From NCBI GenBank assembly GCA_964599945.1, contig CAZRHI010000001.1:2565-66564 (forward strand): a DNA stretch of 64,000 nt, written 5' to 3'. Both the position numbers and the translations under genes were made by a program. A model generated the notes under the pieces. The model ran no database searches. It worked only from the letters and a program-made list of their open reading frames with translations, and was not told where the DNA came from. Shown here piece by piece: positions 20,052-61,566 of the stretch (positions within the stretch are counted from its first letter, which is position 1; each line of letters opens with the position of its first letter). This DNA comes from an uncultured Acetobacter sp. Its GTDB lineage: Bacteria; Pseudomonadota; Alphaproteobacteria; RF32; CAG-239.

Positions 20052-20304
20052 ATTGGTAAAAATCTTAGGATCTTTAGCCATTTTTTTTATTAAAATCTAT
20101 AAAAGAGCAATATCTCCCCTTTTACCATGCGCTTGTCGTTATACCCCTACTTGCTCGGAATATATGATTCAAGCTATTCGCATTCATGGAATCTGGAAAG
20201 GTGGTTATTTGGGAATTAAACGGATTTTTAGATGCCATCCATGGGGTGGTTGCGGAAACGACCCTGTCCCTCCCCCTTCTAATACTGATAAAAACACGGA
20301 TTAA
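20032..20304 (+). CDS. yidD: membrane protein insertion efficiency factor YidD
   Basis: Conserved [10 protein letters not shown]...CHPWGG motifs. Confidence 0.85.
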
Positions 20305-20393
20305 ATTCTTATAAAGCTTTACAATAAGCCTTTTTTATATTAGAAAATGATAGATATTTTGATTACTTATTTTATTTAGGAGAAATTTTAGGA

Positions 20394-22696: not shown

Positions 22697-23673
22697 GTAA
22701 TTTCTGTGATTCCACGGATATTTCCGTCTCGAACTATTTGAACAACGTGTAGTCTGCGACGCATTTCTTGTATGGTTTTTTCTACATCAATATTCGGTTG
22801 TGTTCTCATGATACGCTTAACAAATGCTTCATACGCTGCAGTTGAATTTTCTGCGTGAATTGTGGCCAAGCAGTTATCATGACCTGACCCCATTAGCTCC
22901 CAGATTGCACCAGCATTACTTGTTGAGATTTCCCCTCCGATAATTGCATCTGGTGTAAAACGCACAATAAGGTCAATTACTTTAGAATAGTCCATGGTAT
23001 TGGTTTGCTCTGTACGCGATAAAACGATATGAACATGATTTGGCTGAGGAACATTAAGTTCTCGAGTATCTTCAACTGTAATTACTCGTTTATGTATATC
23101 TAGTAACTTTAAAAGATTATTTAATAATGTTGTTTTACCAGTTCCTGTACCACCGCTCACTAGAATATGATCGCCTCGACGTAGTGCCAATAGCAAACGT
23201 TCATACGCATCTTTAGGATCTTTGATATTTTTTAATGGATTTATTTCCTTTAATTCTTGCCCTTGAGCCAAGCCATAATCACCAAACCCAAAAGCAACAT
23301 CATCTGTATGCAAACGGATCGTTATAGCTATTCCTCCTGCCGCCGCATCATCTAAATCGTATTCAATATTTTTCCCTGCAACACCTGTAAAACGGTGTCC
23401 TCCTGGAATACGTGCATATACAACAGGCGAACCATTTATGGGGTCAAATTCCTGATCGTTTAAATTTGCAATAATATGCAATAAATTAGTTAGATATTCT
23501 CGACTTAGTTTAGGATCTTTGTAATTTACCCACGGAAAAGCTCGTTTGCCACGCAAGCGCAACCAAATATCCCCTGGATGGTTAATTGCCACCTCTTCAA
23601 TATTTTCTTGTTCATACCAATAGGCTAGCGGTCTAAGTACAGAACATAAAACTTGATCTTCCAGCTTTCCCAT
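22693..23673 (-). CDS. virB11: T4SS ATPase VirB11
   Basis: Walker A GGTGTGKTT, the RVITVEDTREL Asp box and a His box, 326 aa. Its 3' end overlaps engB convergently by 4 nt. Confidence 0.9.
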   Translation of the reverse strand: MGKLEDQVLCSVLRPLAYWYEQENIEEVAINHPGDIWLRLRGKRAFPWVNYKDPKLSREYLTNLLHIIANLNDQEFDPINGSPVVYARIPGGHRFTGVAGKNIEYDLDDAAAGGIAITIRLHTDDVAFGFGDYGLAQGQELKEINPLKNIKDPKDAYERLLLALRRGDHILVSGGTGTGKTTLLNNLLKLLDIHKRVITVEDTRELNVPQPNHVHIVLSRTEQTNTMDYSKVIDLIVRFTPDAIIGGEISTSNAGAIWELMGSGHDNCLATIHAENSTAAYEAFVKRIMRTQPNIDVEKTIQEMRRRLHVVQIVRDGNIRGITEIT

Positions 23674-39767: not shown

Positions 39768-40523
39768 TTACTTTCGTTCTCTTTGTTTATATTCAACAAC
39801 AGTAAACCCTAGCGGATTTTTCAACCTTTCACCAAACCTCACCTTTTTGCTTCGATATCTTATGGTCATATTTACAACCCAAACACTTATTTGAGGCGTT
39901 TCCCTTTCAGGTGTCATATCTTCTACTTGAAATTCGACTTCCCACCCCATACCATTTTTTTGTACACCAACTTCTTTGGCTGATTTAATCTTTATGTTAC
40001 GGGTTAAATTATACTGACGAATCTGCTCCATAGCTCTTTTAGCAACATTTTCTCGGAAATCACTATAAACCTTCGTGCTTGACATCTCTTGAAGATTGCT
40101 ACCTGGATCCCAACGCTCTTTCATCTCCGCCTCATCATTAACAAAGGTATTGCGAAGAAGAATATACTCTCTTACAAACATTTCTGTTAAATATTTATAA
40201 TCATAAATCTTTTTGACTTCTTCAATATGGTAAATTTGCTCTTTCTTATCAGCAAAACTAAACAAATATGGTTCAACTCGATACAATGGAATCGTCGTCA
40301 TAATCACATATGTTAGGATAAAATTGCAACACAAACTTACAGCAAAAACTATTGCAAACGCACGAGCCGTCCACAAATAACGTTTTTCTGTTGCATTTTC
40401 AACAATCGTATCCGCAGATGCTTTTCGCCGTTGACGAATCGGCTGAGGTGTTGGTGCCGCTTTTGCACCATTCCCCTCTAACAGTACTCGTTTCGTATTT
40501 TCTGAAGAAATTTGTTCTACCAT
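39768..40523 (-). CDS. virB8: VirB8
   Basis: 251 aa, bitopic with an N-terminal cytoplasmic tail and one TM. NTF2-like C-domain with the conserved NPLGF motif. Confidence 0.8.
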   Translation of the reverse strand: MVEQISSENTKRVLLEGNGAKAAPTPQPIRQRRKASADTIVENATEKRYLWTARAFAIVFAVSLCCNFILTYVIMTTIPLYRVEPYLFSFADKKEQIYHIEEVKKIYDYKYLTEMFVREYILLRNTFVNDEAEMKERWDPGSNLQEMSSTKVYSDFRENVAKRAMEQIRQYNLTRNIKIKSAKEVGVQKNGMGWEVEFQVEDMTPERETPQISVWVVNMTIRYRSKKVRFGERLKNPLGFTVVEYKQRERK

Positions 40524-40878: not shown

Positions 40879-41679
40879 TTAATTTTCAATTTCACTCTGA
40901 GAGTAATGAATAACTGCAAAACCCAGAGGATTTAACAACCGACGATATGCTGTTCTTCGGTTAGGATATGTACGACAACGTATTGTTACTGTCCAATATC
41001 TTTCTTCAATTTTTGGCTCAATTTTTTGTTGTCCTACTGAGTCTTTTGGAAATGAGTAGTCGTATGTTTTAAACTCAACATTCCACGCATAACTATTGTT
41101 TCCACCAGAGCGTTCAACTGACAATATCTCAACAGAGCGACTTGCCTTGCTTTCATTTAGTTCCTTGGTAACTTTTGGATATTCTTTTTCAAACGCTTTG
41201 TAGACCTTATATGTAGATAAATAGGATACTAAACCACCCCATAACCAACGTTTTTTCATCTCCGCTTCATCTTTAATAAAGGTATTTCTTAGCTCAACAT
41301 ATTGCTTTATAAAGTTTACCATTATTCGTTCTCGTGAAATCATTTCATATTTTACATTTTCACAGTCTGTTGTTTCACACTTTGGCATAACGGCGGTGAT
41401 ATATTTGCGTTTTACAAGTGATTGCGAATCTGATAATTCCACAAAAATTTGAGGATCTATCATAATGTTTGGTACTAATTTTAATATTACCAACGTTGCG
41501 GAAATGGTGTATAATATAGCTATGCTTGCTAGCAACACCATCAAATGACTTATCCATTTGTAGTAAATAAGCTTTGCACGACGTACTTCTATTACATCTT
41601 CTGTAATAAATTCAGGCGCATTTCTTGTTTTAGTCTTGTCAGTTATTTGATGTATTTTTTGGTTTGCCAGCTCTGCCAT
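40879..41679 (-). CDS. second VirB8-family paralog
   Basis: 266 aa, bitopic, C-terminal ...YRRLLNPLGFAVIHY with the same NPLGF motif as the 251-aa VirB8. Confidence 0.65.
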   Translation of the reverse strand: MAELANQKIHQITDKTKTRNAPEFITEDVIEVRRAKLIYYKWISHLMVLLASIAILYTISATLVILKLVPNIMIDPQIFVELSDSQSLVKRKYITAVMPKCETTDCENVKYEMISRERIMVNFIKQYVELRNTFIKDEAEMKKRWLWGGLVSYLSTYKVYKAFEKEYPKVTKELNESKASRSVEILSVERSGGNNSYAWNVEFKTYDYSFPKDSVGQQKIEPKIEERYWTVTIRCRTYPNRRTAYRRLLNPLGFAVIHYSQSEIEN

Positions 41680-41698: not shown

Positions 41699-44600
41699 TT
41701 AGTACGTTGGACAATATGCTACGGCTTGGTTTTGATTTTCCATTCCTTGCAATCCATCTTCTACTGATTGAATAGTAACATCTCGGTTAGCTTCTGCTGT
41801 TTTAACGGTTTCTGCAATCTTATCTCGACCAATATCTGGCTGGATTGTTGAAATTTCGTCCTTATCATAAACCAAAACACCATTCTTGCCTTTCTCTGTG
41901 CTTATGTAGTTGTTTATTTTTTCTAATCGTTCCTCTACATATTCTTTCGCTTCTTTAGGCAGATCATCTAATTTTATGTTCTTTAGTTGCTTCTGCGCAT
42001 TCATTAGATAACTATCTTTTGCGGAATCTAACTTACAGAATATTTGATTATATACAGATGCACTTCTATTGACATCTTTACACACAATTCCTGCTTTCTT
42101 TTTTTGCGGTTCAAAATAAATGTTATCTTTGTAACTTGTTGCCAATGCTTGTTTTTCACAATTTTCAATGACTATACCATTTTCTTTGAGTTGTGCGCAA
42201 AGACTTTCCATGGTTTTCTTTATTGTTTCTTCGCTAGATTTCAAGTTCTTCCGAGCATTATATTCTGTTGTTATCGCCTCAAGGAACGACCCCAATGTAT
42301 TACGTTTAAATGAAGCTATTTCTACCTTTTGGCGCGTAATATCGTTGTCTGTGTTCTTTGTGTCTAATAGATATTCGTGCAGGCTTTGATGTATGGTACG
42401 ATATGCCATATCTTGCATTAGAAATTGTCCTAATTCGCTATATTTCTCATATAGATCCTCGCCATCTATGTCTGCTGGAGTTTCCGTATCTTTTACATCT
42501 TTTAAGCCATGGTCTGCTAAGAGATGATATATAGACTTCCCTTCAAATTTGACTTCTTGGCAAGTTGGTAAACTTTGTAGCGTTTTCCCCAAAGGAAGTT
42601 TCTTCCTCGTTTTAAATTGTAGATATTTTGCCTCGTCCTTATCTTTACTGTACCCCATATCTACAACTTTACTTCCAATTCTGCAAGGATATACCCCACC
42701 TCTTCCAATTATAGTACGATAATTTTTATCGTTTGGATTAGTTACGCCACTACTTGCAAGTAAGTTTCTTACTAAATTATTCAACTGATTTTTACCAAAA
42801 GATTTTTCAATAAATGTCTGTTGATATTTACCGTCATTACGCAAGTTTGGACGAGCAAGCAAATGTCTCCATATTTCAGGTAAATATTCTACTTCACAAG
42901 TTTTTTTATCTATTGAGAAATATTTACAATTTAAAAGTTCTGAAATAACGGGGGAAGTTGTCTTCTTTTTCTTATTTTTAAACTTTGCAACATCATCAAA
43001 ATCTGTTGCGTTAAAGTAAAAGATTTCGCGTACAGGCGGTTCGCTAGCCAACATATCTTTCGGGGCGATGAAATCTCTACCTGCATTTGTATCAGACGTG
43101 GCTTTTTCACGATAGTTAATTCCTCGTGCAGGTAGCCCTACAAAATATGCTGTATCTATTATGTTTTCGTCTTCTTGATCTTCTTTGATATTAAGCATTT
43201 TCATAAACTGCTCTTCGTCTGGAATACCAAATAGATTTTCACCTTCTACAACACTTTGAGAAATCTCTCTTAATGTTGTTAGTAGTTCCTCATGATCTAT
43301 CGATGGTTTTTCCAAATATGCTGTGTCAGGTGCTAACGTTCCTTCGCCATTTACCCGATGTTTTTTGGTAAAATCTTCGATTGTTTTCACGGCATCGTTA
43401 ATTGCACTTTCAACTTTTTCATCCGCTTTTTTCACATTATTGCCAAGCTCTATAACGGCTGTTTCAATAACCGCATTTTTTACCGCTTTAGCCAGATTTT
43501 CCGCACTGAGGCTACCTGCGGCAATATTTATAGCTGAAAATGTGCTATCTACATAGAAGTTATTTGGAATGCCCGCACTAATAAGCACATTTTTAATTTT
43601 AGAACTTGGAGAGAAAAATACACGATCCAACTCAGATTTTAGGGCATCTTCTAAATTTCCTTTTTTTGCAACAATATAAGTTAGTGTTGCTTCTAGGTTA
43701 TCTTCATCTCTGCGCTTTGGCTTTTTCTTATTTACGCATATACCCAAAACTTTTTTATAGCAATCTTTCTCATTCCAATCCAGCATACGATATGCCTGAT
43801 CTTCTCCTGTTGCTTTTTCCAGAAAGCCTTCAAATTCGCTGTTTTTGCTTTCTATCGCGCTTTGAGCTTCTTCTTCCAAATCTAGATATTTTTCAGCAAA
43901 ATCTTCCGTTAGTTTGGTTGAGTCTTCTTTCAACTTATCTATTCTTGCTTTTAACTCATCTAGCTTTGATTTTTCGCTTTTTACAACTTTTTCATATTTT
44001 GCTTTTTCTACCTCTGCTGTTGGCATGAAGATATAACGCCCCTCTCGAGAAGTCGGTGTGATATTTAGCAAACCTGTTCTATAGTCTTCACGGAGCTGTA
44101 CGCCATATTTCCCGCAGTCTAATTTAATTGTTTTACAATTAATTCGCTTACTTTTGGGTAGTTTTTGACACGAATTGCAACTATATGGCTTACTCATTGT
44201 CCCTGTTGTTAGGCAACTTTTTTCATTTTTTAGCTCACCGATTTGGCGTTCTATCAAGCATTTATCATCAACATACTTCGTGCCTTTATTTCGACTATCA
44301 AGGATAGCTAGTTCACTCTCAATACTTTTAATTCTTTGTTCGGTTTTGCGAATTTCCTCCGCAACAGTATTTTTATTTTTTTGAGCTTTATCTAGCTTTG
44401 TATTTGTCGTATTTAAATTGGTAATTGCCCTTGCAATATCGTTCTCATATTTTTCTTTTTTAGTTTGATATTCTCTAATACTTTTTTTGATTTTTTCATC
44501 TTGGCTGGCACGTTCATTTATAACATTGCGCAATTTATCTATGGCAACTTCACGACCATTATTTTTACCATAAGTATAAAATTCATCTGCATCTTTCCAT

Positions 44601-46750
44601 GCTGTTTGGAAGTACTTGTTTACCAAGCAAGCTGGTGTTAAACATATACTTGATGTATCAACATGACCTGCTTCTTTTTTATATGTGCAAGTATTGTTTA
44701 ATGATACTCTTTGGTCTTCTGTTACATCTGAAACAGAATATACTTTTAGATTCCCCTCATCATCATAATAGCTTTTTTTCCGCTTGATTATGATATATCC
44801 GTTACTATTCTTCACATCGCATGAATAATATTCTGCTGTGCAATATTTAGTTTTTGCATTAGCAATGGCTTCATCAATACTTTTACAACGAAGAGCTGCC
44901 TCTATGTATGGCTTTACTGGGTCTGTTTCATTGCTTGAAGTATAAGTTTTCGCCACTTCATAAGCCGTAGAACCTTTGTCTGTTGACTTTATTATCAATC
45001 TTATATTACGATATTTATTACGCAGATATTCTGTTTGCAATAATTTTTGGTCATTCCAAGGTTTGAAGTTTAGGTTATATTTTCTCATCATCTCTGATAT
45101 CATATCTCGCCCTAAGCCCCATGTCAGTTCTGCTGTTTTTCGTCCTTCGGTTTGCACTTCTGCCGCATTATCACTATTCAAAAAGCCATCTGTCTCAGAA
45201 GCATTTTCATATCGTTTACTAAATTCTGAACTGTTTACGTTTGTTATATTGGTTACTTCCTGTCCCTCTGTTTGATCTTCTGTGATTAACTCAATAGAAC
45301 ACGCGCATTTGTGCGAATCACTTTCACAGCAATCTGTTGTTTTTGTATATCCTGCAGGACAAGTTTCATAATAGTCTTCACAACCATCACTTGTTCCTAG
45401 AACAATATTTGTAGAAACTCTATCATATTTATTTAACAGCTTACTTGCTTGCCCTATACGGTTAGCATAATCAAATCGTTCTTCATCAGAAATCCAACTT
45501 TTTCCATACCATATTTCTTCTGCCGTAATATCCTTATTTTCATTATGACGCTTCAACAAGTCTATCACACAGTTATCGCTAGCTTTTACTAGTTTTTTTG
45601 CGTTTTCGTGTATTTCTTTTTGCAATAAATATTGACGGTATTGGCTTTTATATTCTGGTAATGAACTTTTTAAATTATGAACAGCTACGGCTTTATCTAT
45701 ATAGTCTTCAATAGGTTTGAATAAAGCCAATATTTCTGTTTCATTAACACTTTTCATTTTTACTTTGTCTTTATTTATTTTGGCACAATTTTTTCCTGTG
45801 CCATTACTACAATTTTCAGCTCTCTTCTTAAATTTTAATATACTCTTGGCTGATGTATATGTATGAGAATCGCTATATGCAAACTGATATGAACGATTGA
45901 TATAGCGTTCTGCATTGCTTTCTTTTACTGGCTCTGCAAGATCTATTTGTTTTGAAGATTGGAAAAGAGCCTCTGTGGCTGTTAAATCTTCAATAATACG
46001 CAATAGTCTGTCATATACCATTGTAACAATGTATGCATTTCTAGCTGCCCCAATTTGCGCAGTGTTATCTTCTTCACCTTCTTCGGTTGTCTGGGCTTGT
46101 TGTTCTTCTGCGCTTACTTCTGCCATTTTCATTCCAAAAAACACACATTCTTTTTCAGAATAATTACCATTTTGACATTCCTCTAGGCGGTTAAGTGTTT
46201 CTTCTACCGTTGATAAGTAATCTTCCATTGCTCTTGCGGCAATATATGTGTTTATCGCAATATCTTGTTTATATTCCACCGCTTTATTTCGGTATGCTTC
46301 ATGTATGATTTGTTCTTTAACATCACTTTCAAAGCTATGGTTAAAAAACAATGTAAAGAAAGCATTAAAAAATGCTTTTTCATCCACGGTATTTGAATCA
46401 ATATCCAGCGTTGTACTTGTTGAAACTTTATTCTGCCCTGGAGTTTTGGCTTCTCCTTTTTTATCTGATCCTAAAGGAGAAACTTCTTTTATTTGATCCC
46501 AAACGCCACCAAGCATACCTCCTTTTGCTCCGAGTAACCCCATAGCACCATCTAATGTTAGCCCAGATTGTATCTGATGATAAAATTCTTGCCCTTGACT
46601 AAGTAACTTTAAAACATTGGTTGCTGGACCAATCACTGGACTTAATGGTGTTGGAGGAATCGGTAAAAAAGCCTCTGCGTTTTGACAACTTACGCCGAGT
46701 AAGAAGCCTCCCATCATCAAACATCTTATGTATTTTGAAATCTTAATCAT
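41699..46750 (-). CDS. 1683-aa secreted Cys-rich coiled-coil protein (T4SS-associated, unknown function)
   Basis: N-terminal signal peptide and no further TM segments. Many Cys clusters (CPAGYTKTTDCCESDSHKCAC...), long coiled-coil stretches and no catalytic motifs recognised. Confidence 0.6.
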   Translation of the reverse strand: MIKISKYIRCLMMGGFLLGVSCQNAEAFLPIPPTPLSPVIGPATNVLKLLSQGQEFYHQIQSGLTLDGAMGLLGAKGGMLGGVWDQIKEVSPLGSDKKGEAKTPGQNKVSTSTTLDIDSNTVDEKAFFNAFFTLFFNHSFESDVKEQIIHEAYRNKAVEYKQDIAINTYIAARAMEDYLSTVEETLNRLEECQNGNYSEKECVFFGMKMAEVSAEEQQAQTTEEGEEDNTAQIGAARNAYIVTMVYDRLLRIIEDLTATEALFQSSKQIDLAEPVKESNAERYINRSYQFAYSDSHTYTSAKSILKFKKRAENCSNGTGKNCAKINKDKVKMKSVNETEILALFKPIEDYIDKAVAVHNLKSSLPEYKSQYRQYLLQKEIHENAKKLVKASDNCVIDLLKRHNENKDITAEEIWYGKSWISDEERFDYANRIGQASKLLNKYDRVSTNIVLGTSDGCEDYYETCPAGYTKTTDCCESDSHKCACSIELITEDQTEGQEVTNITNVNSSEFSKRYENASETDGFLNSDNAAEVQTEGRKTAELTWGLGRDMISEMMRKYNLNFKPWNDQKLLQTEYLRNKYRNIRLIIKSTDKGSTAYEVAKTYTSSNETDPVKPYIEAALRCKSIDEAIANAKTKYCTAEYYSCDVKNSNGYIIIKRKKSYYDDEGNLKVYSVSDVTEDQRVSLNNTCTYKKEAGHVDTSSICLTPACLVNKYFQTAWKDADEFYTYGKNNGREVAIDKLRNVINERASQDEKIKKSIREYQTKKEKYENDIARAITNLNTTNTKLDKAQKNKNTVAEEIRKTEQRIKSIESELAILDSRNKGTKYVDDKCLIERQIGELKNEKSCLTTGTMSKPYSCNSCQKLPKSKRINCKTIKLDCGKYGVQLREDYRTGLLNITPTSREGRYIFMPTAEVEKAKYEKVVKSEKSKLDELKARIDKLKEDSTKLTEDFAEKYLDLEEEAQSAIESKNSEFEGFLEKATGEDQAYRMLDWNEKDCYKKVLGICVNKKKPKRRDEDNLEATLTYIVAKKGNLEDALKSELDRVFFSPSSKIKNVLISAGIPNNFYVDSTFSAINIAAGSLSAENLAKAVKNAVIETAVIELGNNVKKADEKVESAINDAVKTIEDFTKKHRVNGEGTLAPDTAYLEKPSIDHEELLTTLREISQSVVEGENLFGIPDEEQFMKMLNIKEDQEDENIIDTAYFVGLPARGINYREKATSDTNAGRDFIAPKDMLASEPPVREIFYFNATDFDDVAKFKNKKKKTTSPVISELLNCKYFSIDKKTCEVEYLPEIWRHLLARPNLRNDGKYQQTFIEKSFGKNQLNNLVRNLLASSGVTNPNDKNYRTIIGRGGVYPCRIGSKVVDMGYSKDKDEAKYLQFKTRKKLPLGKTLQSLPTCQEVKFEGKSIYHLLADHGLKDVKDTETPADIDGEDLYEKYSELGQFLMQDMAYRTIHQSLHEYLLDTKNTDNDITRQKVEIASFKRNTLGSFLEAITTEYNARKNLKSSEETIKKTMESLCAQLKENGIVIENCEKQALATSYKDNIYFEPQKKKAGIVCKDVNRSASVYNQIFCKLDSAKDSYLMNAQKQLKNIKLDDLPKEAKEYVEERLEKINNYISTEKGKNGVLVYDKDEISTIQPDIGRDKIAETVKTAEANRDVTIQSVEDGLQGMENQNQAVAYCPTY

Positions 46751-46767
46751 GGTTTTCTCCTTTACTT

Positions 46768-48126
46768 TTAATCCACCAATGGAGCATTGACTCTCTTGAT
46801 AACGTCTTTCTTTTCTCCCTTTTGTTGCACCTTCTTTAAGGTTGCTTCATCTAGGATATATTTACTCAAATCGAAATTATAAAAATCAGCTATCGCCCCT
46901 TGTTTTTCTATATCTAATTCTTTTATTTCTAGTGCTGCTTGATATTGTAGTTTGGCTGCTAATAATCTGGCATATAGTGCTAGCGCGCGAGTAACCTCTA
47001 TGCGTGTATTAGAATATGAAACGATTGCTTCTAATTCTGGCAATTCTTTGGTTGCATCAAATATTTCTTTTATTTTATTCTCCCGCTCGGGCAATTCTCG
47101 ACGAACTGTAGCTGTTACCTGCAAAAGATGTCCTATGGTAATAATTATTAGATGTTTGCGATCACGTTCTTTTTGATCTCCTGTTGAAGCATTTTTTTGG
47201 TAAGCTTGTCGCAACTTATCATCCGCTAGAAGCTTATATTCCTTTTCTTCTGTATCAAAATATGCTCGAACAAATCTTTTATAATCTTCATCACTAATAA
47301 TGAAACCACTTAAATCTTTTATATTTCCCCAATCTTTTTGGTCTTTCATATCTGCTTGAAGTACTATGTTTGCATCTTCTGCTTGCTGTTCTATTTCGTC
47401 ATATCTGTTTTTAACATCTTCCCATTTTGCATCATCTGATGTACCTACTTTTTTACGTTTTTCACGCAATAATTTTAACGCATCCTCTTGTGCTTTTCTT
47501 AACTCTGCAAGAGATGCTTCTTCTTGAGCTAATCTATCAGCTTCTTGGGAGACGTTCATATAGTCAACCCACGCTTTTCTTATTTCTTCATCAGAGGCTG
47601 TTCCATTTTCCACAAGTTGGTCATATTTACGTTGGGCGTTCTGAGCCTTTATACTGGCTTCAGATGATTGTCTGTGCTTTTCATTCTCCGATTTTTTATA
47701 TTCAGATATATTTTTCTCTGTAATTCCTATCTTTGTATCATATTCCTTTTTAGAGGCTTCCAAATATAAATCTCTCTCTAGTTTTATCAACTCTTGGTTC
47801 TTTCCTTTTGTAGAACCAACTTGAGGGGATAATAATCCCTTGCCATTATCTCCTTGACCACCCATAAGCATACTACCAAGCCCTTTACTAAGCTCTGATA
47901 ACAACATATTTTTCAACGATGCTATGTTTAGACCTTGGGTTGCCATTTGTTTAATCATGTTTACTTTTTCTATGCCCTGAACCGCCGTATCATAAATAGT
48001 TTGAACATTTCCTGTAATTGTTTGTGCCATTTCTGCACCATCAATTATAATATTTGAATATGCTGGTTTGTTGATACCAACATTTAACATTGTCGCTAGT
48101 GTTATTGTTAATATTGTTTTTCTCAT
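46768..48126 (-). CDS. VirB5/TrbJ-like secreted coiled-coil protein, paralog 4 (452 aa)
   Basis: Signal peptide, N-terminal helix resembling VirB5, extended E/K-rich coiled coil. Confidence 0.45.
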   Translation of the reverse strand: MRKTILTITLATMLNVGINKPAYSNIIIDGAEMAQTITGNVQTIYDTAVQGIEKVNMIKQMATQGLNIASLKNMLLSELSKGLGSMLMGGQGDNGKGLLSPQVGSTKGKNQELIKLERDLYLEASKKEYDTKIGITEKNISEYKKSENEKHRQSSEASIKAQNAQRKYDQLVENGTASDEEIRKAWVDYMNVSQEADRLAQEEASLAELRKAQEDALKLLREKRKKVGTSDDAKWEDVKNRYDEIEQQAEDANIVLQADMKDQKDWGNIKDLSGFIISDEDYKRFVRAYFDTEEKEYKLLADDKLRQAYQKNASTGDQKERDRKHLIIITIGHLLQVTATVRRELPERENKIKEIFDATKELPELEAIVSYSNTRIEVTRALALYARLLAAKLQYQAALEIKELDIEKQGAIADFYNFDLSKYILDEATLKKVQQKGEKKDVIKRVNAPLVD

Positions 48127-48139
48127 TTTCGCTAGCTCC

Positions 48140-48826
48140 CTATTCCTCTTCTTCGTTTTCTCTATTATATTGCATTAGCTCTTTTACTGCTTGAGCTTGG
48201 AACATATAACTTCTTAATTCAAGAATTCTGGCTATGCGCGCATCACTATTTCGAAGCAAAGTTCCTTGAGCAAATATAAGTTCGTCCATATTGTCGTTCT
48301 CAAAATCTCTATTGTATAATTCTGTATCCTCTTGCATAAGATTTTGTTTGGTAACCATTCCTTTTGCAAACAATATGGCAATATTATCTATTACTATCGC
48401 ATTATTTTCTTGTTTTAACTGATCGCGACGTGAAATATCATCTCCTGTTCCTTTTTTGTATGTTCCATCTTCTTTAATACTCTCCGCTAATTTTTCAGCA
48501 TCTTTTTTCATTAAATCCCCACTTTGGAGTTCTCCACCTACTGTGCGGATACCATCTATCTTTGTTTTTGTATCTTTTGCAAAATTACTTACCTCATCAT
48601 AACATTTTAGAGGATTTGCAAAACAGTTTGTTGCCATGGCAAACCCTTGACGAACTGTTTTTTCTGCATCTTGTATTATTTTAACGGCTTCTTGAATTTG
48701 GTTTTCAATAGTTTGCTTTAACTTTAACCCTGATTGCAATGTGGCCATAGGGTCAAGAATTGCATACACATTTTTGGAGTATACAAGCAATGAAAATATC
48801 AATAGTAGAAATACTCTTTTTTTCAT
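48140..48826 (-). CDS. virB5: VirB5/TrbJ-like minor pilin, paralog 3 (228 aa)
   Basis: Signal peptide, about 220 aa helical protein of VirB5/TrbJ size and composition. Confidence 0.5.
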   Translation of the reverse strand: MKKRVFLLLIFSLLVYSKNVYAILDPMATLQSGLKLKQTIENQIQEAVKIIQDAEKTVRQGFAMATNCFANPLKCYDEVSNFAKDTKTKIDGIRTVGGELQSGDLMKKDAEKLAESIKEDGTYKKGTGDDISRRDQLKQENNAIVIDNIAILFAKGMVTKQNLMQEDTELYNRDFENDNMDELIFAQGTLLRNSDARIARILELRSYMFQAQAVKELMQYNRENEEEE

Positions 48827-48831
48827 TTCTA

Positions 48832-51075
48832 TTACTCCTCGTCGTAACGTTGATCAAAATAATTGTAACCAATTTTTGGCAGATATTTTAAAATATCCGT
48901 TTGCAAATTTTGCGCGTCCGCCTCTACTATGCTTAATATCTGCATGGTTGTATAATAGTTAATTTGCGCACCAGAAGCATAATCATTTACAGCAACAGTG
49001 TTTTGTTTCATATCCTCTTGTAGGCTGGCAATATTTGTTTCATTATCCTCTACTTTTGCATAATCTTTGCTTGATTTATAATTATTTATTGTGGCGAGTG
49101 TTAAAGTTTGGAATGATGTATCATTTATTGCTTTTATTGCTTTTTCTTTCCATGTTTTAGAACACTGCTCTAGTGTTTGGTTCTCTGCCGAGCAATAGTT
49201 TTCTTTATCTTTTTTATATCTACCATTTGCGGCAGCGGCATATTGGAACAAGCACTTTGAAATATTTCTCTCTGCAGCTCCTGTTTGTGTTTTATCAAAT
49301 TTACTCTCTGGTGCAACGGATATATCCTCTGCATCTTGGCCACAATTATATAAAAAAAGATTGGAAAATATTTGACGCTCCTCTGTTCCATTTTTTGTTT
49401 GGATATTTTTCATTAACCCTGGTTTACTACTGTTTGCATTGCTAAAATCTTTATCTCGACCATCTAAATATAATGTTTTTCCAGTTTTAAATTGTTGCGT
49501 AGCTTCTTTAGAACGTTGCAACGCATCTACTGTTCGGAGCATACTCCACAATCTGGGAGCTTCAATTTCTATCATTCCTAAATTCACATTGGCATTTCGA
49601 GTATTATCCACACTTTTTTCCAATTTACTTAACTGTGCTAATGTCCCATTTTCATCATACAACCACGAAAAAATATATTGTTGGATACGACTATTATTTT
49701 GAATATTTGCGATTGAATAATCTTCTACGATATGCGCATACACTCCATTTTTTCGGTGTGCTTTATATAACTCTTTGGCATTTGCATCCATTGTGTATGG
49801 ATCAAGATTACATTTATCACTAGATATTCCTTTTTTTACACAGACGTAGTCCTTTTCTGCTTTTGCCAATGTAACACATTCTCTGAATTTATCTGCCTTT
49901 TCTCCTAATTTTTTTAAATCATTTTCGTTTCCAAAATCTTTGCATAAAAGTTCTTTGGGAAGAATATATGTTTTGTACTCTTTGTTATTTTTATTTACAT
50001 ATATTCCTTTCGCATTGGATAGTTGATGATTTGAACTGTACTGAAAAAAATATTGTTGGTTATTTTTCATTAAAAAACTTAATTTTTCAGGTTCTTCATC
50101 TTCTTCCGAATATTCCCTACTATTACTTTGGCTATTTAGTATTTCCTCTTGTAATTTTTGCGCACCACTAATGAGTTCTTCGGCAATTTGTAATAAATTA
50201 TCGACAACATTTTCATCCCATGGCAGTGGATTTGAGGCGATGTCCTGTTGTAGTTTCTCCCCTGCTTGGTCTAATTCTTCTCTACTGATTTCACCTGCAT
50301 AATATGCTGCAATTTTTTGGCTATACTCATCAAAGCTATTTTGAATATTTTGAGCATATTCTGTGTCTAATTGCGTTTGTGCTGAATTTATAATATTTTC
50401 TGCCATTGTTTTGAGAAGTTCTGCCTTTTGCAATAACTCTTCTGCCTGACTTTTATATTCTTCGCGCTCTTCTTCTGTTAACTCATCACTCTGTTCTATT
50501 ACTGGAATTATTGTTTTTATGGTTTCAACAACTTCGGTGGTCATATCTTCTATTTGCACACCTGTTTCTTTCATTTTATCCTCTAGTTCTTGTTTTTGTT
50601 CTTCTATTTCCTCTTGAGAATCTTTAAGGGTACTTTGCACTTCCTCTTCTGTTGCCCCATTATCTATTTGAGAACCAACATTCTGCACGGTTTCTGTTAC
50701 CGTGTTGTTGACTGTTTGTACTGTTGATGTTACTGTATCCTTTATATTAGAAAATGCGTCTTTTAAACTTTTATCTATCTGAATACTTGATAAATCAAAT
50801 TCTCCTATTTTAGCGACTACATTTTTCAAATCAGCCATATATTTTGTAACGTTTGTAACTTGGTCGCCCACAGAATTTATGGTTTGTATTGTATTTTCTA
50901 TTTGGCTTTTAGTATTTGCAACTTGCGAAACGCCATTACTTATTCCAGAGATAAACGCCCCAACCTGAGCAAAGTCAAATGTTGGCCAAATAAATGCAAC
51001 AGCAGGACGTACAGCCATTATGCTACATATCGCTATGACGATTATACTTCTTTTAGCTTTTGTCCTTATACTCAT
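48832..51075 (-). CDS. VirB5-like N-domain fused to a long coiled coil and a Cys-containing C-terminal globular domain (747 aa)
   Basis: N-terminus AFIWPTFDFAQVGAF...QIENTIQTINSVGDQ parallels the 356-aa paralog (GIPTFDII...). C-terminal third has 10 Cys residues. Confidence 0.45.
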   Translation of the reverse strand: MSIRTKAKRSIIVIAICSIMAVRPAVAFIWPTFDFAQVGAFISGISNGVSQVANTKSQIENTIQTINSVGDQVTNVTKYMADLKNVVAKIGEFDLSSIQIDKSLKDAFSNIKDTVTSTVQTVNNTVTETVQNVGSQIDNGATEEEVQSTLKDSQEEIEEQKQELEDKMKETGVQIEDMTTEVVETIKTIIPVIEQSDELTEEEREEYKSQAEELLQKAELLKTMAENIINSAQTQLDTEYAQNIQNSFDEYSQKIAAYYAGEISREELDQAGEKLQQDIASNPLPWDENVVDNLLQIAEELISGAQKLQEEILNSQSNSREYSEEDEEPEKLSFLMKNNQQYFFQYSSNHQLSNAKGIYVNKNNKEYKTYILPKELLCKDFGNENDLKKLGEKADKFRECVTLAKAEKDYVCVKKGISSDKCNLDPYTMDANAKELYKAHRKNGVYAHIVEDYSIANIQNNSRIQQYIFSWLYDENGTLAQLSKLEKSVDNTRNANVNLGMIEIEAPRLWSMLRTVDALQRSKEATQQFKTGKTLYLDGRDKDFSNANSSKPGLMKNIQTKNGTEERQIFSNLFLYNCGQDAEDISVAPESKFDKTQTGAAERNISKCLFQYAAAANGRYKKDKENYCSAENQTLEQCSKTWKEKAIKAINDTSFQTLTLATINNYKSSKDYAKVEDNETNIASLQEDMKQNTVAVNDYASGAQINYYTTMQILSIVEADAQNLQTDILKYLPKIGYNYFDQRYDEE

Positions 51076-51119
51076 ATCAGTTCTCCCAATAATTTCTTTT
51101 TATATATACACTAAATAGT

Positions 51120-52190
51120 TTAACTTTTTGTTTCTTTTTGTATAGCATCTACTATTTCGGTAATTTTCTTTATTAAATTTTCAGTATCCTTTTGCAAACT
51201 TGCCACTGTTGCGTTCACCTCTTTTAAAACAGAAGAATCTGGTGTTACATTTATTGCATTCACATCATTTTTTAATTTTTCTCCTGCAATAATTACAGCA
51301 TCTTGGCTCGAATCTCCTTTAATATATTCGATTACGATTTTTGTATAATTATTGATACCATCTTTAATTTTGGCATTATACTCTTTGTTATAATTTTCTT
51401 TGGCTTGTTCTATAATATTTGCAGCCCAATTACCAACATCTTTGTATTTCTCTAATATTTCGCTGATTTCTTCTTTGATTTTTTCTTTATCTTGTTTAGT
51501 GATTTCCTCTGCCGTTTCTATTGATGTCTGAAGCTTAAGCAATGAAGCTGTATTTTTTGCCACCGCTTCATTTAACATGGTTAATTGGTTGTCTAGTATG
51601 TCATTTAATTCTATGGCTAGTTGCTTTTGTTCATCCGCTGTTTCTTTTTGCAACAAGAAAATTTCTTTTTCTTGCTCACTTATATCAATTTCCTCTTCCT
51701 CTTCTTCTTCGATAAGCACACTTCTGCTCCCTGGTCTATCTTTTGAGTTACCAGAGGGGTGGTTGCCAATACCTATTGTTTGCTGGGTTTGATTTACATA
51801 ATCACCTGTAATACCTTGCTGATTATTTACCGTATTTTGTATCGCATTTGAGACACTACTTGTGGCTTGTCCTATTGTATTGGTTAAATTTTCACCTACC
51901 GAGATTACATTATTAAATGTATCAACCATATCATTTAGATCTTGAACAAACCCTTGTAGAAAACCCGCAATACTGCCAATCTCAGAACCGATGGCATTTA
52001 GAGTTTTCTTCATCTCGTCAATTTGTTTTTTTAAATCTTTTAATGTGTCTATATCTGTCTTAAGATCTTTAAACACCATTGGAACATCTTCTATAATGTC
52101 AAAAGTAGGGATACCTAGCGCAACTGCATCAAATGCAAATAAGTATGCACATAAACTGAGAATAGCTCTGTATTGCTTACTCTTTCTCAT
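51120..52190 (-). CDS. VirB5/TrbJ-like secreted protein, paralog 1 (356 aa)
   Basis: Signal peptide, GIPTFDIIEDVP N-motif, helical with an acidic EEEEEE tract. First gene after virB4, as in trw/virB operons. Confidence 0.45.
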   Translation of the reverse strand: MRKSKQYRAILSLCAYLFAFDAVALGIPTFDIIEDVPMVFKDLKTDIDTLKDLKKQIDEMKKTLNAIGSEIGSIAGFLQGFVQDLNDMVDTFNNVISVGENLTNTIGQATSSVSNAIQNTVNNQQGITGDYVNQTQQTIGIGNHPSGNSKDRPGSRSVLIEEEEEEEIDISEQEKEIFLLQKETADEQKQLAIELNDILDNQLTMLNEAVAKNTASLLKLQTSIETAEEITKQDKEKIKEEISEILEKYKDVGNWAANIIEQAKENYNKEYNAKIKDGINNYTKIVIEYIKGDSSQDAVIIAGEKLKNDVNAINVTPDSSVLKEVNATVASLQKDTENLIKKITEIVDAIQKETKS

Positions 52191-52256
52191 AATGTTCCTC
52201 CTAAAATAATATTTTATGGTTTATGATAGCATATTTTTCATATTTTGTCAATATTT

Positions 52257-54710
52257 TTATCCTCCTAAACCATCTAAGTACTTCGTTACGAAACCATCTT
52301 CTCCATATTCTTTTACCAATTCATCAACCAATAAAACGTTTTTAATACCCGAATTATAAAGTTTAAGATATGGTCCTATTCCACCCAAATTAACATCTAG
52401 TACGACAGACTCACCCTCACCATTTTCCCCTGCGTCAGGACGCTTTATCAAAATCGCATAAGGGCAATCTCTATACGAGCGACCACATATAAAATTGTAC
52501 TCACTATCTGTTAAATTCCATTTTGCATAAGACTCTGGAGTTGCTTGTGTATTGCGGAAAAATATCATAGTTTTACATTGCCCACGTACGGCATCTCCAA
52601 CGCCTAAATCATCTACAATATTTGGTTGTTGGAAAGCACATAAATAGGCCTGACGTTTTTTACGCCCTTCTTGCAAACCCTTAATAAACGCATCTCTAAA
52701 CATTTCATGCTTTAACATTGGGGCGGTTTCATCTATCATAACCAATGCTGGCGTACCTGTTTCAGTACTTTCTGATTGGATACGATGCATAATATAGCTA
52801 ATAGATGCCGCTGCTAATGTTTCATCATCAAATATTTCTGTAAAATCAAACGCCACAAAACGATTTGTGCTTAAATCCAAACTATCATGTTCTGCATTAA
52901 AAATGTTACCATATTGATCTGGATTTACCCAGCGGAATAATTCTCTACGCATATTTCCTGTTGGAGAAAAGCAACTTTTATATAAATTGCTTAATACTCG
53001 CTCTTCTGGCTTGAGATAATCAAATGCTGTTGTTACTGCTCGGGCAGACTCTCGTTCGGAAAGAGCATCTGAAGACATTGTAATCGCTTTTAACCAATTT
53101 CGCAAGAAAGCTCGGTTACTTAATGTATCTCGCGTATCAAATGGATTTAATGAAACATTTTTTCGTTCTCCACTAAAACCCACATATGCTCCTTTAACGG
53201 TATGGGTAAAGATTTCTGCACCACGGTGGCGGTCAAAGAAGTAAACTTTCAAATCTCCATGGCGCATAGCTTGTCCTGCTAAAAATGTCAGCAATGTTGT
53301 TTTACCTTGTCCTGTTGGTCCAACAATACAACAGTGTGCCACCGCTGACTCGGCTGCGGAAATATGGAATTGGAAACGATATGGCGAACCGCTCATGGTT
53401 CTGAATACACTAATTGCACCTTCACCCCAGTCGCTCCGTGGCAAACCTGTTGATAGTTGTTCAAAAGATACAGCCAGCGATACTATACGGGATAGGTAGA
53501 AATATGTTCTACCGCACATATCATACCCAGGGAATTGGTTGAAAAATGTCGCCTGAGCTATCCAGTTTTCACGAACAGGAGTAACACTAAACAAACGACA
53601 AATACGTTGAATCTCACTTTCTCCAAACAGCACTTCTTCCAAGGTGTTCCCTTTTAATATGAAGCTCATAGAATATTCGATAAGTGATTGGTGATCTGCA
53701 TCGCTATCTTCGATTGCTGACAATGCTTCACTATATTGCGCAACTACATCACCTGAAAAACTTGTTACTTCTGCCATTTTTTGTTGTTGAACAAGTATAG
53801 CTCTTGCTTTGGGCTTAAACAATGGGTGGATATGATGCAATAATGTTAACTCACAATCTATTGACAACAACGCGGAAACCATATTCTCGTCCATATAATC
53901 ACCAGAAGTTCTGATGCCCATTGTTAAAGCGTATTTTTCCTTTTCGCCAGAAAAAAACTTTATTATTCCCTCTTCTCCTGTAAAGTGAATACCATCTGCG
54001 GTTAACATCTCTTTGAGTTGGAAACCTTGCGCTCCTCGTATTTTGGGTTTAGGATTACTTATTGGATTTAAGATGCGTACAAAAGGATATATCGGACTTA
54101 GTTCTGCAGGAGTTTCATCATCTTCAAACAGAACTTTAACCCCATAATCATTTAAGTTTGCAATAACTGACTGCGAGGCAAAATTCAAATCTTTGACAGC
54201 CTCTTTTCTATCTTCTATTGAAATTACGATGTAATGGTCATTTTTATATACACGACTCAGATTTTCACGCCAGACATCATCGACAATTTTTAACCATTTG
54301 TTCCCAAAATCATCTTTATTTTTTTCCATTGGAACACGTTCTCTTATGGTTATGACACGACAAGTTATCTGCAAATCCGCCATATTGTCTAACCATGCTT
54401 TACGGGCCTCAAACATAGATAAAATAGTTTCTTCTCTCGCGGACGTTAAATCCACACCTTGGACTTTAAAAACACGTACATATGAACCATTACTACAACG
54501 TAATGTTGACCCATCTGACAACAAACAATCAAACGGCAAAAAATCCGCAACACGAGACTCTCTTGGTTGAGGAAGAATCCATGTTCCCACTTTGGAAACT
54601 AGCGTAACAATTATTGCTGTCGCCATTATGATTCCCAAAACTGCAACAAGAGCTTCAGAGCTTTGCAAGCCCTCTCTAAAGAGTGTATAAAAATCAAAAT
54701 TAAGGTTCAA
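52257..54710 (-). CDS. virB4: T4SS ATPase VirB4/TrbE/CagE
   Basis: 817 aa, Walker A GPTGQGKTT and a Walker B region. Overlaps virB3 by 11 nt. Confidence 0.9.
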   Translation of the reverse strand: MNLNFDFYTLFREGLQSSEALVAVLGIIMATAIIVTLVSKVGTWILPQPRESRVADFLPFDCLLSDGSTLRCSNGSYVRVFKVQGVDLTSAREETILSMFEARKAWLDNMADLQITCRVITIRERVPMEKNKDDFGNKWLKIVDDVWRENLSRVYKNDHYIVISIEDRKEAVKDLNFASQSVIANLNDYGVKVLFEDDETPAELSPIYPFVRILNPISNPKPKIRGAQGFQLKEMLTADGIHFTGEEGIIKFFSGEKEKYALTMGIRTSGDYMDENMVSALLSIDCELTLLHHIHPLFKPKARAILVQQQKMAEVTSFSGDVVAQYSEALSAIEDSDADHQSLIEYSMSFILKGNTLEEVLFGESEIQRICRLFSVTPVRENWIAQATFFNQFPGYDMCGRTYFYLSRIVSLAVSFEQLSTGLPRSDWGEGAISVFRTMSGSPYRFQFHISAAESAVAHCCIVGPTGQGKTTLLTFLAGQAMRHGDLKVYFFDRHRGAEIFTHTVKGAYVGFSGERKNVSLNPFDTRDTLSNRAFLRNWLKAITMSSDALSERESARAVTTAFDYLKPEERVLSNLYKSCFSPTGNMRRELFRWVNPDQYGNIFNAEHDSLDLSTNRFVAFDFTEIFDDETLAAASISYIMHRIQSESTETGTPALVMIDETAPMLKHEMFRDAFIKGLQEGRKKRQAYLCAFQQPNIVDDLGVGDAVRGQCKTMIFFRNTQATPESYAKWNLTDSEYNFICGRSYRDCPYAILIKRPDAGENGEGESVVLDVNLGGIGPYLKLYNSGIKNVLLVDELVKEYGEDGFVTKYLDGLGG

Positions 54711-54990
54711 ATTTGTGTCCTTTCACCTTGTATAAATTTGTTGTTACAACATTTGTATTACCAAAAGCCTGCAACATTCCTGATAAATGCGGATCTTTTG
54801 TACCTAAAGCAACAACAACAAGGTGTCCTAACACGATTGTCATAATAAAAATTAAGGGGTTTGTTTGCCAGATACCAACACTCATAAACATAAATGGAAT
54901 CTGTAATCCTGCGTTTAGGGCTGTTGGCAAAACTGGTCCCCAAAACAGTTTTGGTGGATTAGCTACCGCTTTTAGAATTATATCTCTCAT
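54700..54990 (-). CDS. virB3: VirB3
   Basis: 96-aa membrane protein with the conserved PPKLFWGPV region, directly upstream of and overlapping virB4. Confidence 0.75.
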   Translation of the reverse strand: MRDIILKAVANPPKLFWGPVLPTALNAGLQIPFMFMSVGIWQTNPLIFIMTIVLGHLVVVALGTKDPHLSGMLQAFGNTNVVTTNLYKVKGHKFEP

Positions 54991-55492: not shown

Positions 55493-55831
55493 CTAGTTTC
55501 CACCCATAATATCAGCTGGAATTGAATCAACAGCATCTGGAGCAAACATTTCAACAAACATTACACAAGAACTAATTACAACTAATCCAACAACAATAGC
55601 TGTTAACCATTTCCAGTTAATATTACCAAAAAAGCCACCTATACACACTGCAATAATTCCCACTGCAGAAGCTGGATATATAATTTCTCGTAAACCTGTA
55701 AAAATATCCTTTCCTGCATCTGTTAAGGCTGTAAAATGTTCTCCGCCAGCCCAAGCCAAAGTAGAATAGCACATAACAAAAGCTACAGTTAAGCTGATAA
55801 TGATACTTTTTTTATTATTAAACTTGCACAT
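55493..55831 (-). CDS. virB2: VirB2/TrbC pilin paralog 2
   Basis: Likely start MCKFNNKK..., signal peptide plus two hydrophobic helices, about 112 aa. Confidence 0.65.
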   Translation of the reverse strand: MCKFNNKKSIIISLTVAFVMCYSTLAWAGGEHFTALTDAGKDIFTGLREIIYPASAVGIIAVCIGGFFGNINWKWLTAIVVGLVVISSCVMFVEMFAPDAVDSIPADIMGGN

Positions 55832-55927
55832 AATACCTATTCCTCCCAAGTTATTGTAATTATTATAGCACAAATATTAAAAATATTCCAGTAAAAAGAC
55901 CTTTTCCGTACTTTAAATAACCATATG

Positions 55928-55985: not shown

Positions 55986-56013
55986 CACCCTCTGTGATTT
56001 AACACAGAGGGTG
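55986..56013. terminator. hairpin terminator after virB2 paralog 3
   Basis: caccctctgtg-atttaa-cacagagggtg perfect 11-bp stem with T-runs on both strands, 20 bp downstream of the stop at 56035. Confidence 0.6.
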
Positions 56014-56034: not shown

Positions 56035-56412
56035 TTAGCTACCGCTGCTAGCTACATCACCCTCACCACTGTTAACAAAGGTATCAACAATGTCGTTAGA
56101 GTGTTGATCACCACCCATTTGAGCACCAGTTGCGTAGTTAACGATTGTACCAGCTGCAGCCAAGATAGCAAGACCTACTGCAAGACCTGCAAACCATGTC
56201 CATTTAACTTTTCCGAAGATTGCTTGGAAGGCAATACCCACTAAACCAAAACCACCTACAACGAAAATAATCATTTTTACATGGTTGAAAATTCTTACTG
56301 CTTTACCAGCAGCAACATCCATTACGCTTTCAGCATGAGATGCATCTGCGAACAATACTGTAAATACTAATGCCAATGAGCAGAGTATAAACATTTTCTT
56401 TAAGTTTCTCAT
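56035..56412 (-). CDS. virB2: VirB2/TrbC pilin paralog 3 (likely the major pilin, own transcription unit)
   Basis: 125 aa, signal peptide and two hydrophobic helices with a Gly-rich C-terminus. Flanked by its own promoter and terminator. Confidence 0.7.
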   Translation of the reverse strand: MRNLKKMFILCSLALVFTVLFADASHAESVMDVAAGKAVRIFNHVKMIIFVVGGFGLVGIAFQAIFGKVKWTWFAGLAVGLAILAAAGTIVNYATGAQMGGDQHSNDIVDTFVNSGEGDVASSGS

Positions 56413-58025: not shown

Positions 58026-58150
58026 TTACTATTTTTATAACTTTTATAAAAAAAATTCACAAAACGTTTTATAAATGAGGTGTTGTGCTTGAATAATTAA
58101 ATTTTAACATTTATTGTGAAACGAGATTAGATTTAAAGATAGGTCAAATT

Positions 58151-61556: not shown

Positions 61557-61566
61557 GGAGTAGACC

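Follow-up and report, generated by a model that had tools for sequence, protein, structure and literature searches.

Five predicted exported proteins in the VirB5-VirB6 slot of a chromosomal VirB-type secretion locus from uncultured gut Alphaproteobacteria

What stands in for VirB5 and VirB6 in a VirB-type type IV secretion system (T4SS) whose slot between virB4 and the first virB8 gene is filled with five open reading frames (ORFs), none encoding a polytopic membrane protein? The question is raised by a minus-strand locus in a 64,000-nucleotide stretch of an uncultured Acetobacter sp. genome (assembly GCA_964599945.1, contig CAZRHI010000001.1, positions 2,565 to 66,564), hereafter the window. 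The answer toward which we lean, with reserve, is that the five would be exported by Sec and serve as structural subunits, specific to this lineage, of a chromosomal VirB-type T4SS that is inherited vertically. The slot comprises the following genes, in gene order.

51120..52190, minus strand: p356, secreted helical protein, 356 aa
48832..51075, minus strand: p747, secreted protein, 747 aa
48140..48826, minus strand: p228, secreted protein, 228 aa
46768..48126, minus strand: p452, secreted hydrophilic protein, 452 aa
41699..46750, minus strand: p1683, secreted Cys-rich protein, 1683 aa

The coordinates of the five, as listed in the initial annotation of this DNA, are exact, and the genes on both flanks were confirmed by Pfam. 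They are tightly packed, with gaps of 5-66 nt, and are regarded as real genes because they are long ORFs in DNA of 34% GC whose order is kept in about 35 species. Kyte-Doolittle scans revealed in each protein an N-terminal signal-type hydrophobic segment alone. In all orthologs (28-31 per family) the h-region is preceded by Lys or Arg, no 19-aa window past residue 40 rises above 1.65 (family medians 0.7-1.1), and the mature parts have a grand average of hydropathy of -0.6 to -0.8. The check for an overlooked domain rich in transmembrane (TM) segments was therefore negative in the window proteins and in their orthologs, in agreement with the initial annotation, which had called none of the five polytopic. 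Its description of their bodies as coiled-coil-rich was borne out by long helical bundles in p747 (~95-315) and p228 only, and is not demonstrated for the rest. Pfam and NCBIfam searches with all five returned no VirB5 and no VirB6/TrbL, merely sub-threshold coiled-coil noise; hhalign comparison of TrbL with four of the families gave at most 1.3%, and blastp of p1683 against TrbL proteins gave nothing below E 2. Similarity among the five at 90-96% hhalign probability was lost upon trimming of the signal peptides, except between p356 and p747, so these inter-family matches were signal-peptide artefacts.

With signal peptides removed, p356 proved paralogous to the N-terminal third of p747, ~300 residues from the mature start (hhalign 100%, E 3e-38), the mature proteins starting with GIPTFD... 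and FIWPTFD..., respectively. Both mature N-termini align in register with four VirB5 proteins of the nearest plasmid systems (hhalign 80.6%). A hidden Markov model built on residues 1-55 of the mature p356-family proteins, searched against a database of 3,413 ORFs, matched the VirB5 of Sphingosinicella (E 8.6e-5) and that of Erythrobacter (E 1.7e-6), the latter itself clearing the Pfam PF07996 threshold. On these comparisons p356 and p747 are firmly predicted to share with genuine VirB5 its mature N-terminal module. A signal peptide combined with this conserved module was found in these two only, p228, p452 and p1683 lacking the combination.

Compared with the VirB5/TrbJ family (PF07996; TraC, TrwJ, CagL), the shared features are a signal peptide and a body predicted to be a helical bundle, to which p356 and p747 add a mature start of hydrophobic-hydrophobic-Asp followed by a long helix. 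The likeness is, however, confined to ~55 residues, none of the five matches PF07996 at E ≤ 0.1, and p747 is three times the usual size, consisting of the VirB5-type N-terminus, a long helical bundle (~95-315) and an additional C-terminal domain of ~420 aa with conserved Cys. Foldseek comparison of the p747 model with the PDB gave nothing significant. The gene for p356 is missing from the divergent relative L030, whose array has four genes (labels of this kind denote fetched relatives, of which 60 loci together with the window make up 1.24 Mb); the ancestral array is reconstructed as one of four genes, with p356 as a later duplicate of the p747 N-terminus.

The three other proteins are of a different kind. 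The alignment of p228 features a conserved Cys pair (C68, C75) and a C-terminal RILELRAY motif, and its AlphaFold2 (AF2) model (pLDDT 85) is made up of three long helices and a small insert. A word-indexed homolog search returned just 8-9 close orthologs for p228 and p747; an exhaustive profile search uncovered 75 clusters of the p228 family, which has no Pfam family, among 1.84 billion representatives, the distant members occupying the same slot of the same locus type. Orthologs of p452, which has no match in Pfam or NCBIfam and no Cys in its mature part, measure 412-505 aa and sit in the same slot in all related loci. Those of p1683, which bears 34 Cys and a Pro-rich mature N-terminus (FLPIPPTP...), measure 1297-1683 aa and always precede virB8. 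The Cys of p1683 and the conserved Cys of p747 and p228 would fit a periplasmic or extracellular location.

No VirB5 relation of p228, p452 or p1683 was detectable by Pfam, profile-profile comparison, PDB profile search or Foldseek, so the term 'amplified VirB5' used in the initial annotation suits the paralogs p356 and p747, with their VirB5-type N-terminus, but not these three. PDB sequence and profile searches with p356, p228, the p228 family and the p747 family retrieved only designed bundles, haemagglutinin and similar compositional matches. Judged from the databases searched, the p228, p452 and p1683 families are found only in this T4SS locus type.

A VirB4 scan identified 35 loci, all in metagenome-assembled genomes of uncultured gut Alphaproteobacteria from mouse, human and ruminant, labelled Alphaproteobacteria, 'Acetobacter sp.', Rickettsiales or Rhodospirillales, and in one case Lachnospiraceae. 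They probably represent the GTDB order RF32. VirB4 is 80-92% identical in about 33 species and the neighbouring secretin 75-90%. The five proteins occur in the same order in about 35 species, yet are only about 25-50% identical, by which measure all five are estimated, with little room for doubt, to have diverged several times as fast as the ATPase and the membrane core. The scan also detected two deeper relatives (VirB4 68-69%), one of them L030. The latter and four loci found via distant p228 members share the same architecture, with four or five slot genes encoding one or two VirB5-like proteins (364-600 aa), a p228-like protein (223-500 aa), a protein of 412-505 aa and one of 1297-1470 aa, followed by VirB8, the 62-aa lipoprotein, VirB8 and VirB9. 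An additional small ORF of 80 aa lies in the slot of L058 and L059. As the order is kept in every related locus examined, the array is a fixed signature part of this T4SS lineage, and its five products in the window are confidently predicted to be Sec-type exported, non-membrane, operon-embedded, universally retained and fast-evolving. No description of this T4SS was found in the searchable literature.

The locus is also set apart by what accompanies it. The initial annotation had stated that neither VirD4 nor a relaxase follows virB11, and the genes found there are indeed engB-yidC-yidD-rnpA, then gpsA, recF, dnaN and dnaA. No window ORF matched VirD4 or a relaxase in Pfam or NCBIfam, and the other window ORFs of at least 90 aa are housekeeping, type IVb pilus or unknown, none with a signature of a type IV coupling protein (T4CP) or relaxase. 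When three VirD4 and two MobA/MobL proteins were searched by tblastn against the window and the 60 fetched loci, matches were confined to plasmid loci, and the gut lineages uniformly lack a T4CP gene within 10 kb of virB4 or virB11. VirD4 is an optional part of T4SSs, being absent in Ptl, Brucella VirB, ComB and Trw. Since no coupling protein or relaxase is linked, the output of the system is, by analogy, more likely to be an adhesion or contact organelle (as Trw) or two-step export (as Ptl) than translocation of DNA, or injection of effectors, from the cytoplasm into a target.

The two-step route brings in a second explanation, in which the five would be substrates that leave the cytoplasm via Sec, assemble in the periplasm and then cross the outer membrane through a T4SS without a coupling protein, like the pertussis toxin (PT) subunits S1-S5 through Ptl. 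Sec-type signal peptides on all five, genes inside the T4SS operon and the lack of a linked VirD4 speak for it, as do p747 Foldseek matches that include ClyA-type alpha-pore-forming toxins at non-significant E values (0.08-0.4); the two-step route of Ptl, along with the idea that PT might stand in for VirB5, is covered in a review (PMC12857230). We nevertheless regard cargo as unlikely, since the genes lie in the canonical VirB5-B6-B7 slot and not upstream of the operon, two of the products carry the VirB5 N-terminal module, none of the five resembles PT subunits or any toxin family in Pfam and NCBIfam, and the four families keep a fixed order in every lineage, while cargo sets usually vary.

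The second half of the opening question concerns VirB6, which is reported to be conserved in all T4SSs (PMC12857230). The earlier finding of no VirB6/TrbL in the window was reproduced by Pfam/NCBIfam and hydropathy, and a TrbL profile built from relatives gave a best E of 4.5. Within 10 kb downstream of virB4 no ORF with at least three hydrophobic segments was found in ~33 related loci; upstream, only the VirB2 paralogs are of this kind. A polytopic 441-aa ORF at 18029-19354 (minus strand; 8-11 hydrophobic segments) was rejected as a displaced VirB6, having no Pfam match and 0.6% against the TrbL profile; housekeeping genes separate it from virB11, and it is missing in L055, which has the T4SS.

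Sister genomes were entered through VirB11 homologs (71-95% identical), and three arrangements were seen downstream of virB11. In the sublineage of the window (VirB11 95% and 78% identical), virB11 adjoins engB-yidC-...-dnaA as in the window (arrangement A). In three lineages (VirB11 71-73% identical), one of them a very prevalent human-gut species with a 1.85-Mb contig, a convergent cluster meets virB11 (arrangement B). Unrelated genes lie there in one further lineage (arrangement C). The cluster of arrangement B, with up to three TrbL/VirB6 paralogs of 438-919 aa, is located as follows.

L042:11073-20969, arrangement-B cluster
L047:11008-20972, arrangement-B cluster
L056:11076-20969, arrangement-B cluster
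L054:316-8929, arrangement-B cluster

It encodes proteins of ~260-290 aa (bitopic), ~420 aa (a lipoprotein), 240-290 aa and 780-990 aa, two cytoplasmic Gln-rich proteins being among the products, together with a helix-turn-helix regulator and a TrbL/VirB6-domain protein of 837-919 aa (PF04610, 33.2 bits, cutoff 25.9) that has about six TM helices and a long hydrophilic tail; the accessory proteins belong to no Pfam families. A further gene follows the TrbL gene and encodes in the prevalent species a 1050-aa M23 peptidase, which may be the missing VirB1-like wall hydrolase; this peptidase scores 80 bits against the TrbL profile in L042 and L054. The prevalent species has two more TrbL-like paralogs further upstream (826 aa, 23.6 bits; 438 aa, 22.7 bits). 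The TrbL-cluster proteins of 284, 426, 237 and ~900 aa were considered as paralogs of the five slot proteins, and none is. Neither the window nor the VirB4-anchored loci contain a match to any cluster gene.

Between the three arrangement-B lineages, TrbL identity is only 36-48%, so the linkage of these genes to virB11 is old, and because these sister lineages encode TrbL/VirB6 beside virB11, VirB6 has been displaced from its canonical slot in this T4SS lineage rather than being absent. 'Extended VirB6' proteins are known from the literature (PMC12857230). With virB11 adjoining engB-yidC in the lineage of the window, any TrbL ortholog would lie outside the window. The absence of VirB6 noted in the initial annotation hence stands for the window but is weakened for the system, and its caveat that VirB6 could be encoded elsewhere seems right: the genome of the window probably encodes one, as the sister-lineage clusters suggest, and the surprise is probably a matter of gene location.

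A T4SS that truly lacks VirB6 has to be weighed against this, and it draws on plasmids. The closest plasmid VirB4 proteins (33-37% identity) are those of Microvirga (NZ_CP069357, L039), Sphingosinicella (NZ_CP035502, L041) and Erythrobacter aureus (NZ_CP031358, L038), whose loci run MobA/MobL, virB2, B3, B4, VirB5, a secreted 422-453 aa protein, VirB7 (with SPCAC), virB8-B11 and VirD4, and which from this gene content are apparently conjugative. The secreted protein takes the VirB6 slot in all three, and no polytopic VirB6-sized protein lies in the fetched flanks (12 kb for Sphingosinicella; 15 kb for Erythrobacter and Microvirga), the Microvirga flank containing only a 228-aa protein with three TM segments. 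Homology of these slot proteins (453, 422 and 428 aa) to p452 or p1683 was undetectable, with a weak N-terminal resemblance to p356. The annotated start of the Erythrobacter slot protein omits a signal peptide found in the upstream in-frame extension, and the Sphingosinicella VirB7 is unannotated. A Paracaedimonas plasmid (VirB4 30% identity) keeps a 348-aa polytopic VirB6-like protein; its tblastn search against plasmids gave no match in the three VirB6-less ones, a result that is uninformative.

Under this third explanation, the sublineage of the window and its plasmid relatives (Sphingomonadales, Hyphomicrobiales) would have dispensed with VirB6, and a hetero-oligomer of secreted helical proteins, the VirB5-like ones plus p228, p452 and p1683, would serve as the stalk or pilus platform. 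The window without a TrbL-like ORF, the sublineage without a TrbL cluster beside virB11, and three relaxase- and VirD4-bearing plasmid T4SSs with a secreted protein where VirB6 is expected all point that way. We judge both the loss of VirB6 and the substitute platform improbable, as up to three TrbL paralogs persist beside virB11 in sister lineages whose machine is orthologous, the reported conservation of VirB6 covers all T4SSs, and the view taken here extends over 64 kb of the genome and 12-15 kb of virB4 flanks on plasmids of 350-730 kb. That the five are passengers, surface proteins unrelated to T4SS function and inserted in the operon by chance, as three without homology to T4SS parts might suggest, is very hard to credit given their invariant order and presence in about 35 species and deep relatives, the restriction of the p228 family to this locus type and gene gaps of 5-66 nt.

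The reading as structural subunits can be spelled out on the R388 model, in which a VirB5 pentamer on a VirB6 pentamer forms the stalk and pilus platform and polymerisation of VirB2 lifts VirB5 to the tip (PMC9259494). Applied here, the model would put p356 and p747 in the place of VirB5, atop the stalk and then at the tip of the VirB2 filament, with the additional Cys-containing domain of p747 as a possible binding module. The proteins p228, p452 and Cys-rich p1683 would be further periplasmic or surface-exposed parts, which together with the giant beta-flower proteins described below may form the exposed face contacting the host or target. The VirB6 base would be supplied by unlinked extended TrbL/VirB6 paralogs in a separate cluster, here outside the window.

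Several observations weigh against this reading. The AF2 model of p747 is confident for residues ~95-315 only and poor elsewhere; the p228 model has no significant Foldseek neighbour in the PDB, CagL (VirB5-like) appearing at E 8.2 and no VirB5 structure among the matches; and no T4SS component of known role is detectably similar to p228, p452 or p1683. Furthermore, no VirB6 gene lies in the 64-kb window, virB11 adjoins housekeeping genes in the sublineage (L045, L055), and that one genome would contain both the five-gene array and the TrbL cluster is deduced from orthology of the flanking virB8-virB11 genes, not from a shared contig.

The remainder of the locus, in gene order around the slot, is composed of the following genes.

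56035..56412, minus strand: VirB2/TrbC pilin paralog a, 125 aa; Pfam TrbC 35.8 bits (cutoff 27.9); signal segment and two TM segments
55493..55873, minus strand: VirB2/TrbC pilin paralog b, 126 aa; Pfam TrbC 36.0 bits
55075..55557, minus strand: VirB2-like paralog c, listed ORF of 160 aa; Pfam TrbC 20.0 bits, below cutoff; topology as paralogs a and b
54700..54990, minus strand: VirB3-like protein, 96 aa; no Pfam match; assigned by position, size and hydrophobic segments
52257..54710, minus strand: VirB4 ATPase, 817 aa, one N-terminal TM segment; Pfam CagE_TrbE_VirB 39.7 bits (cutoff 21)
40879..41679, minus strand: VirB8 paralog a, 266 aa; Pfam VirB8 35.2 bits
40546..40734, minus strand: VirB7-like lipoprotein, 62 aa; lipobox LAAC and SPCACI motif; no Pfam model applied
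39768..40523, minus strand: VirB8 paralog b, 251 aa; Pfam VirB8 63.1 bits
37482..39767, minus strand: VirB9, 761 aa; Pfam CagX 50.6 bits and C-terminal SPOR 21.4 bits (threshold 21)
28030..37485, minus strand: giant beta-flower repeat protein, 3151 aa, one N-terminal TM segment; Pfam Bflower_2 E 1e-235, dozens of repeats
23751..28028, minus strand: VirB10/TrbI, 1425 aa; Pfam TrbI 94.9 bits and Bflower_2 repeats
22693..23673, minus strand: VirB11 ATPase, 326 aa, last gene of the locus; Pfam T2SSE

VirB2 (TrbC twice above cutoff), VirB4, VirB7, two VirB8, VirB9, VirB10 and VirB11 are thus all present, as in VirB-type (MPF-T-like) systems, and polytopic VirB6/TrbL and VirD4 are missing in cis from the 64-kb window. 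The gene inventory of the initial annotation stands, except that it overlooked the 62-aa VirB7-like lipoprotein, whose SPCACI-type motif recurs in the Erythrobacter, Sphingosinicella and Microvirga loci and in L030. VirB3 is probably present as well: the 96-aa protein, 75-93% identical between species, aligns with a Microvirga protein annotated VirB3, and both share a K(D/E)PH motif.

The amplification of VirB2 claimed earlier is confirmed by the three paralogs, two of which exceed the TrbC cutoff. The true start of paralog c is likely an internal ATG near 55482 (MSIRCKY...). In some species this third gene is enlarged to 210-886 aa and has either added hydrophobic segments or a long tail rich in Gly and Asn, which suggests a pilin-like protein fused to another domain.

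L018:8997-9629, enlarged third VirB2-like gene
L020:8976-9611, enlarged third VirB2-like gene
L030:8400-9584, enlarged third VirB2-like gene
L057:4763-5899, enlarged third VirB2-like gene
L058:2456-5116, enlarged third VirB2-like gene

The stretch separating virB2 paralogs a and b includes a perfect 11-bp inverted repeat (CACCCTCTGTG...CACAGAGGGTG) at 55986-56013, a possible attenuator downstream of the gene for the major pilin. A sigma-70-like site, TTGACA-17-TATCAT with TG (52223..52251, minus strand), falls in the 66 nt that separate virB4 from p356 and is the best match of the 17-kb region. As the overall site count is not above shuffled expectation, it is merely a lead for an internal promoter, hinting that the secreted-protein block might be transcribed separately.

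Toward the other end of the locus, VirB9 is enlarged by three tandem Gly/Asn/Ser-rich repeats of ~37 aa each, visible in the translation, and by SPOR, a peptidoglycan-binding domain that also matches weakly in one distant relative. The giant beta-flower protein sits between virB9 and virB10, counterparts in the same slot elsewhere measuring 1104-1883 aa. The repeat-rich giant and VirB10 recall the repeat-expanded CagY/VirB10 of Helicobacter.

Divergent from the virB2 genes, a type IVb pilus module occupies 56685-64000 on the plus strand and runs past the window end, with genes for an unknown 446-aa protein, a TcpQ/PilL-like protein (604 aa), a secretin (542 aa) and a PilO-like protein (422 aa); such a module adjoins the T4SS in nearly all related loci. 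Across 12433-23673 the T4SS adjoins the replication-origin set engB, yidC, yidD and rnpA, then gpsA, recF, dnaN and dnaA, the housekeeping genes of the window also including recG, mfd and fpg. The locus boundary at virB11 is a rearrangement point, because the TrbL cluster or other genes lie there in sister lineages.

The bacteria carrying this system are uncultured but common in human, mouse and ruminant guts, and they maintain this large T4SS under strong constraint. The VirB4 identity of 80-92%, the place beside replication-origin genes, the lack of a linked coupling protein and a fast-evolving private surface set together suggest that it is likely a central colonisation or contact device, whose periplasmic or surface set consists mostly of protein families seen nowhere else. 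The locus would provide a natural case of a rebuilt VirB5-VirB6 slot, with duplicated VirB5-like proteins bearing added domains, three new subunit families, VirB6 relocated as extended paralogs to a cluster of its own, and beta-flower repeat giants at VirB10. The plasmid relatives pose the testable question of whether VirB6 is dispensable; if it were truly lacking there and in the sublineage of the window, these systems would be an exception to its reported universality.

Among known systems, the plasmid T4SSs of Erythrobacter, Sphingosinicella and Microvirga share the order virB2-B3-B4, VirB5, secreted protein, SPCAC VirB7 and virB8-B11, with a slot devoid of a polytopic VirB6. They differ in having MobA/MobL and VirD4, single copies of VirB2 and VirB8 and a plasmid location, and in lacking the p228, p452 and p1683 families and the beta-flower giants. 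By this comparison the gut system seems to descend from a conjugative clade with an already unusual VirB6 slot and to have become fixed in the chromosome, having lost, or unlinked, its relaxase and T4CP.

The rvh system of Rickettsiales (PMC4676284) is likewise alphaproteobacterial and chromosomal, with a duplicated VirB8. A further likeness is given by the several long 'extended' VirB6 paralogs (438-919 aa) of the sister species here. In rvh the VirB6 paralogs directly follow virB4, VirD4 is kept and no VirB5 is known; the post-virB4 slot here, in contrast, holds non-membrane proteins. Bordetella Ptl also lacks VirD4 and is encoded with five Sec-exported proteins, but it keeps PtlD (VirB6), has no VirB5, and its toxin genes precede the ptl genes.

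The parallel with Bartonella Trw drawn in the initial annotation fits in gene content but not in ancestry, the nearest relatives belonging to the alphaproteobacterial plasmid clade and not to R388/Trw. In Trw, trwI (VirB6) occupies its canonical position and trwJ-trwI-trwH is amplified as one unit, whereas no such tandem array and no VirB6 are found in the slot here, three additional slot families are without an equivalent in Trw, and such VirB6 paralogs as were seen are encoded in a cluster of their own. Both are nevertheless VirB-type systems with VirB11, without a coupling protein in the locus, with several VirB2 copies (three here), duplicated VirB5-like genes and sequence-variable exposed parts, p356 and p747 being 25-50% identical between species. 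For Trw, adhesive pili rather than translocation have been proposed (PMC2883598; PMC12857230), and by analogy a Trw-like adhesive role would be plausible for the gut system.

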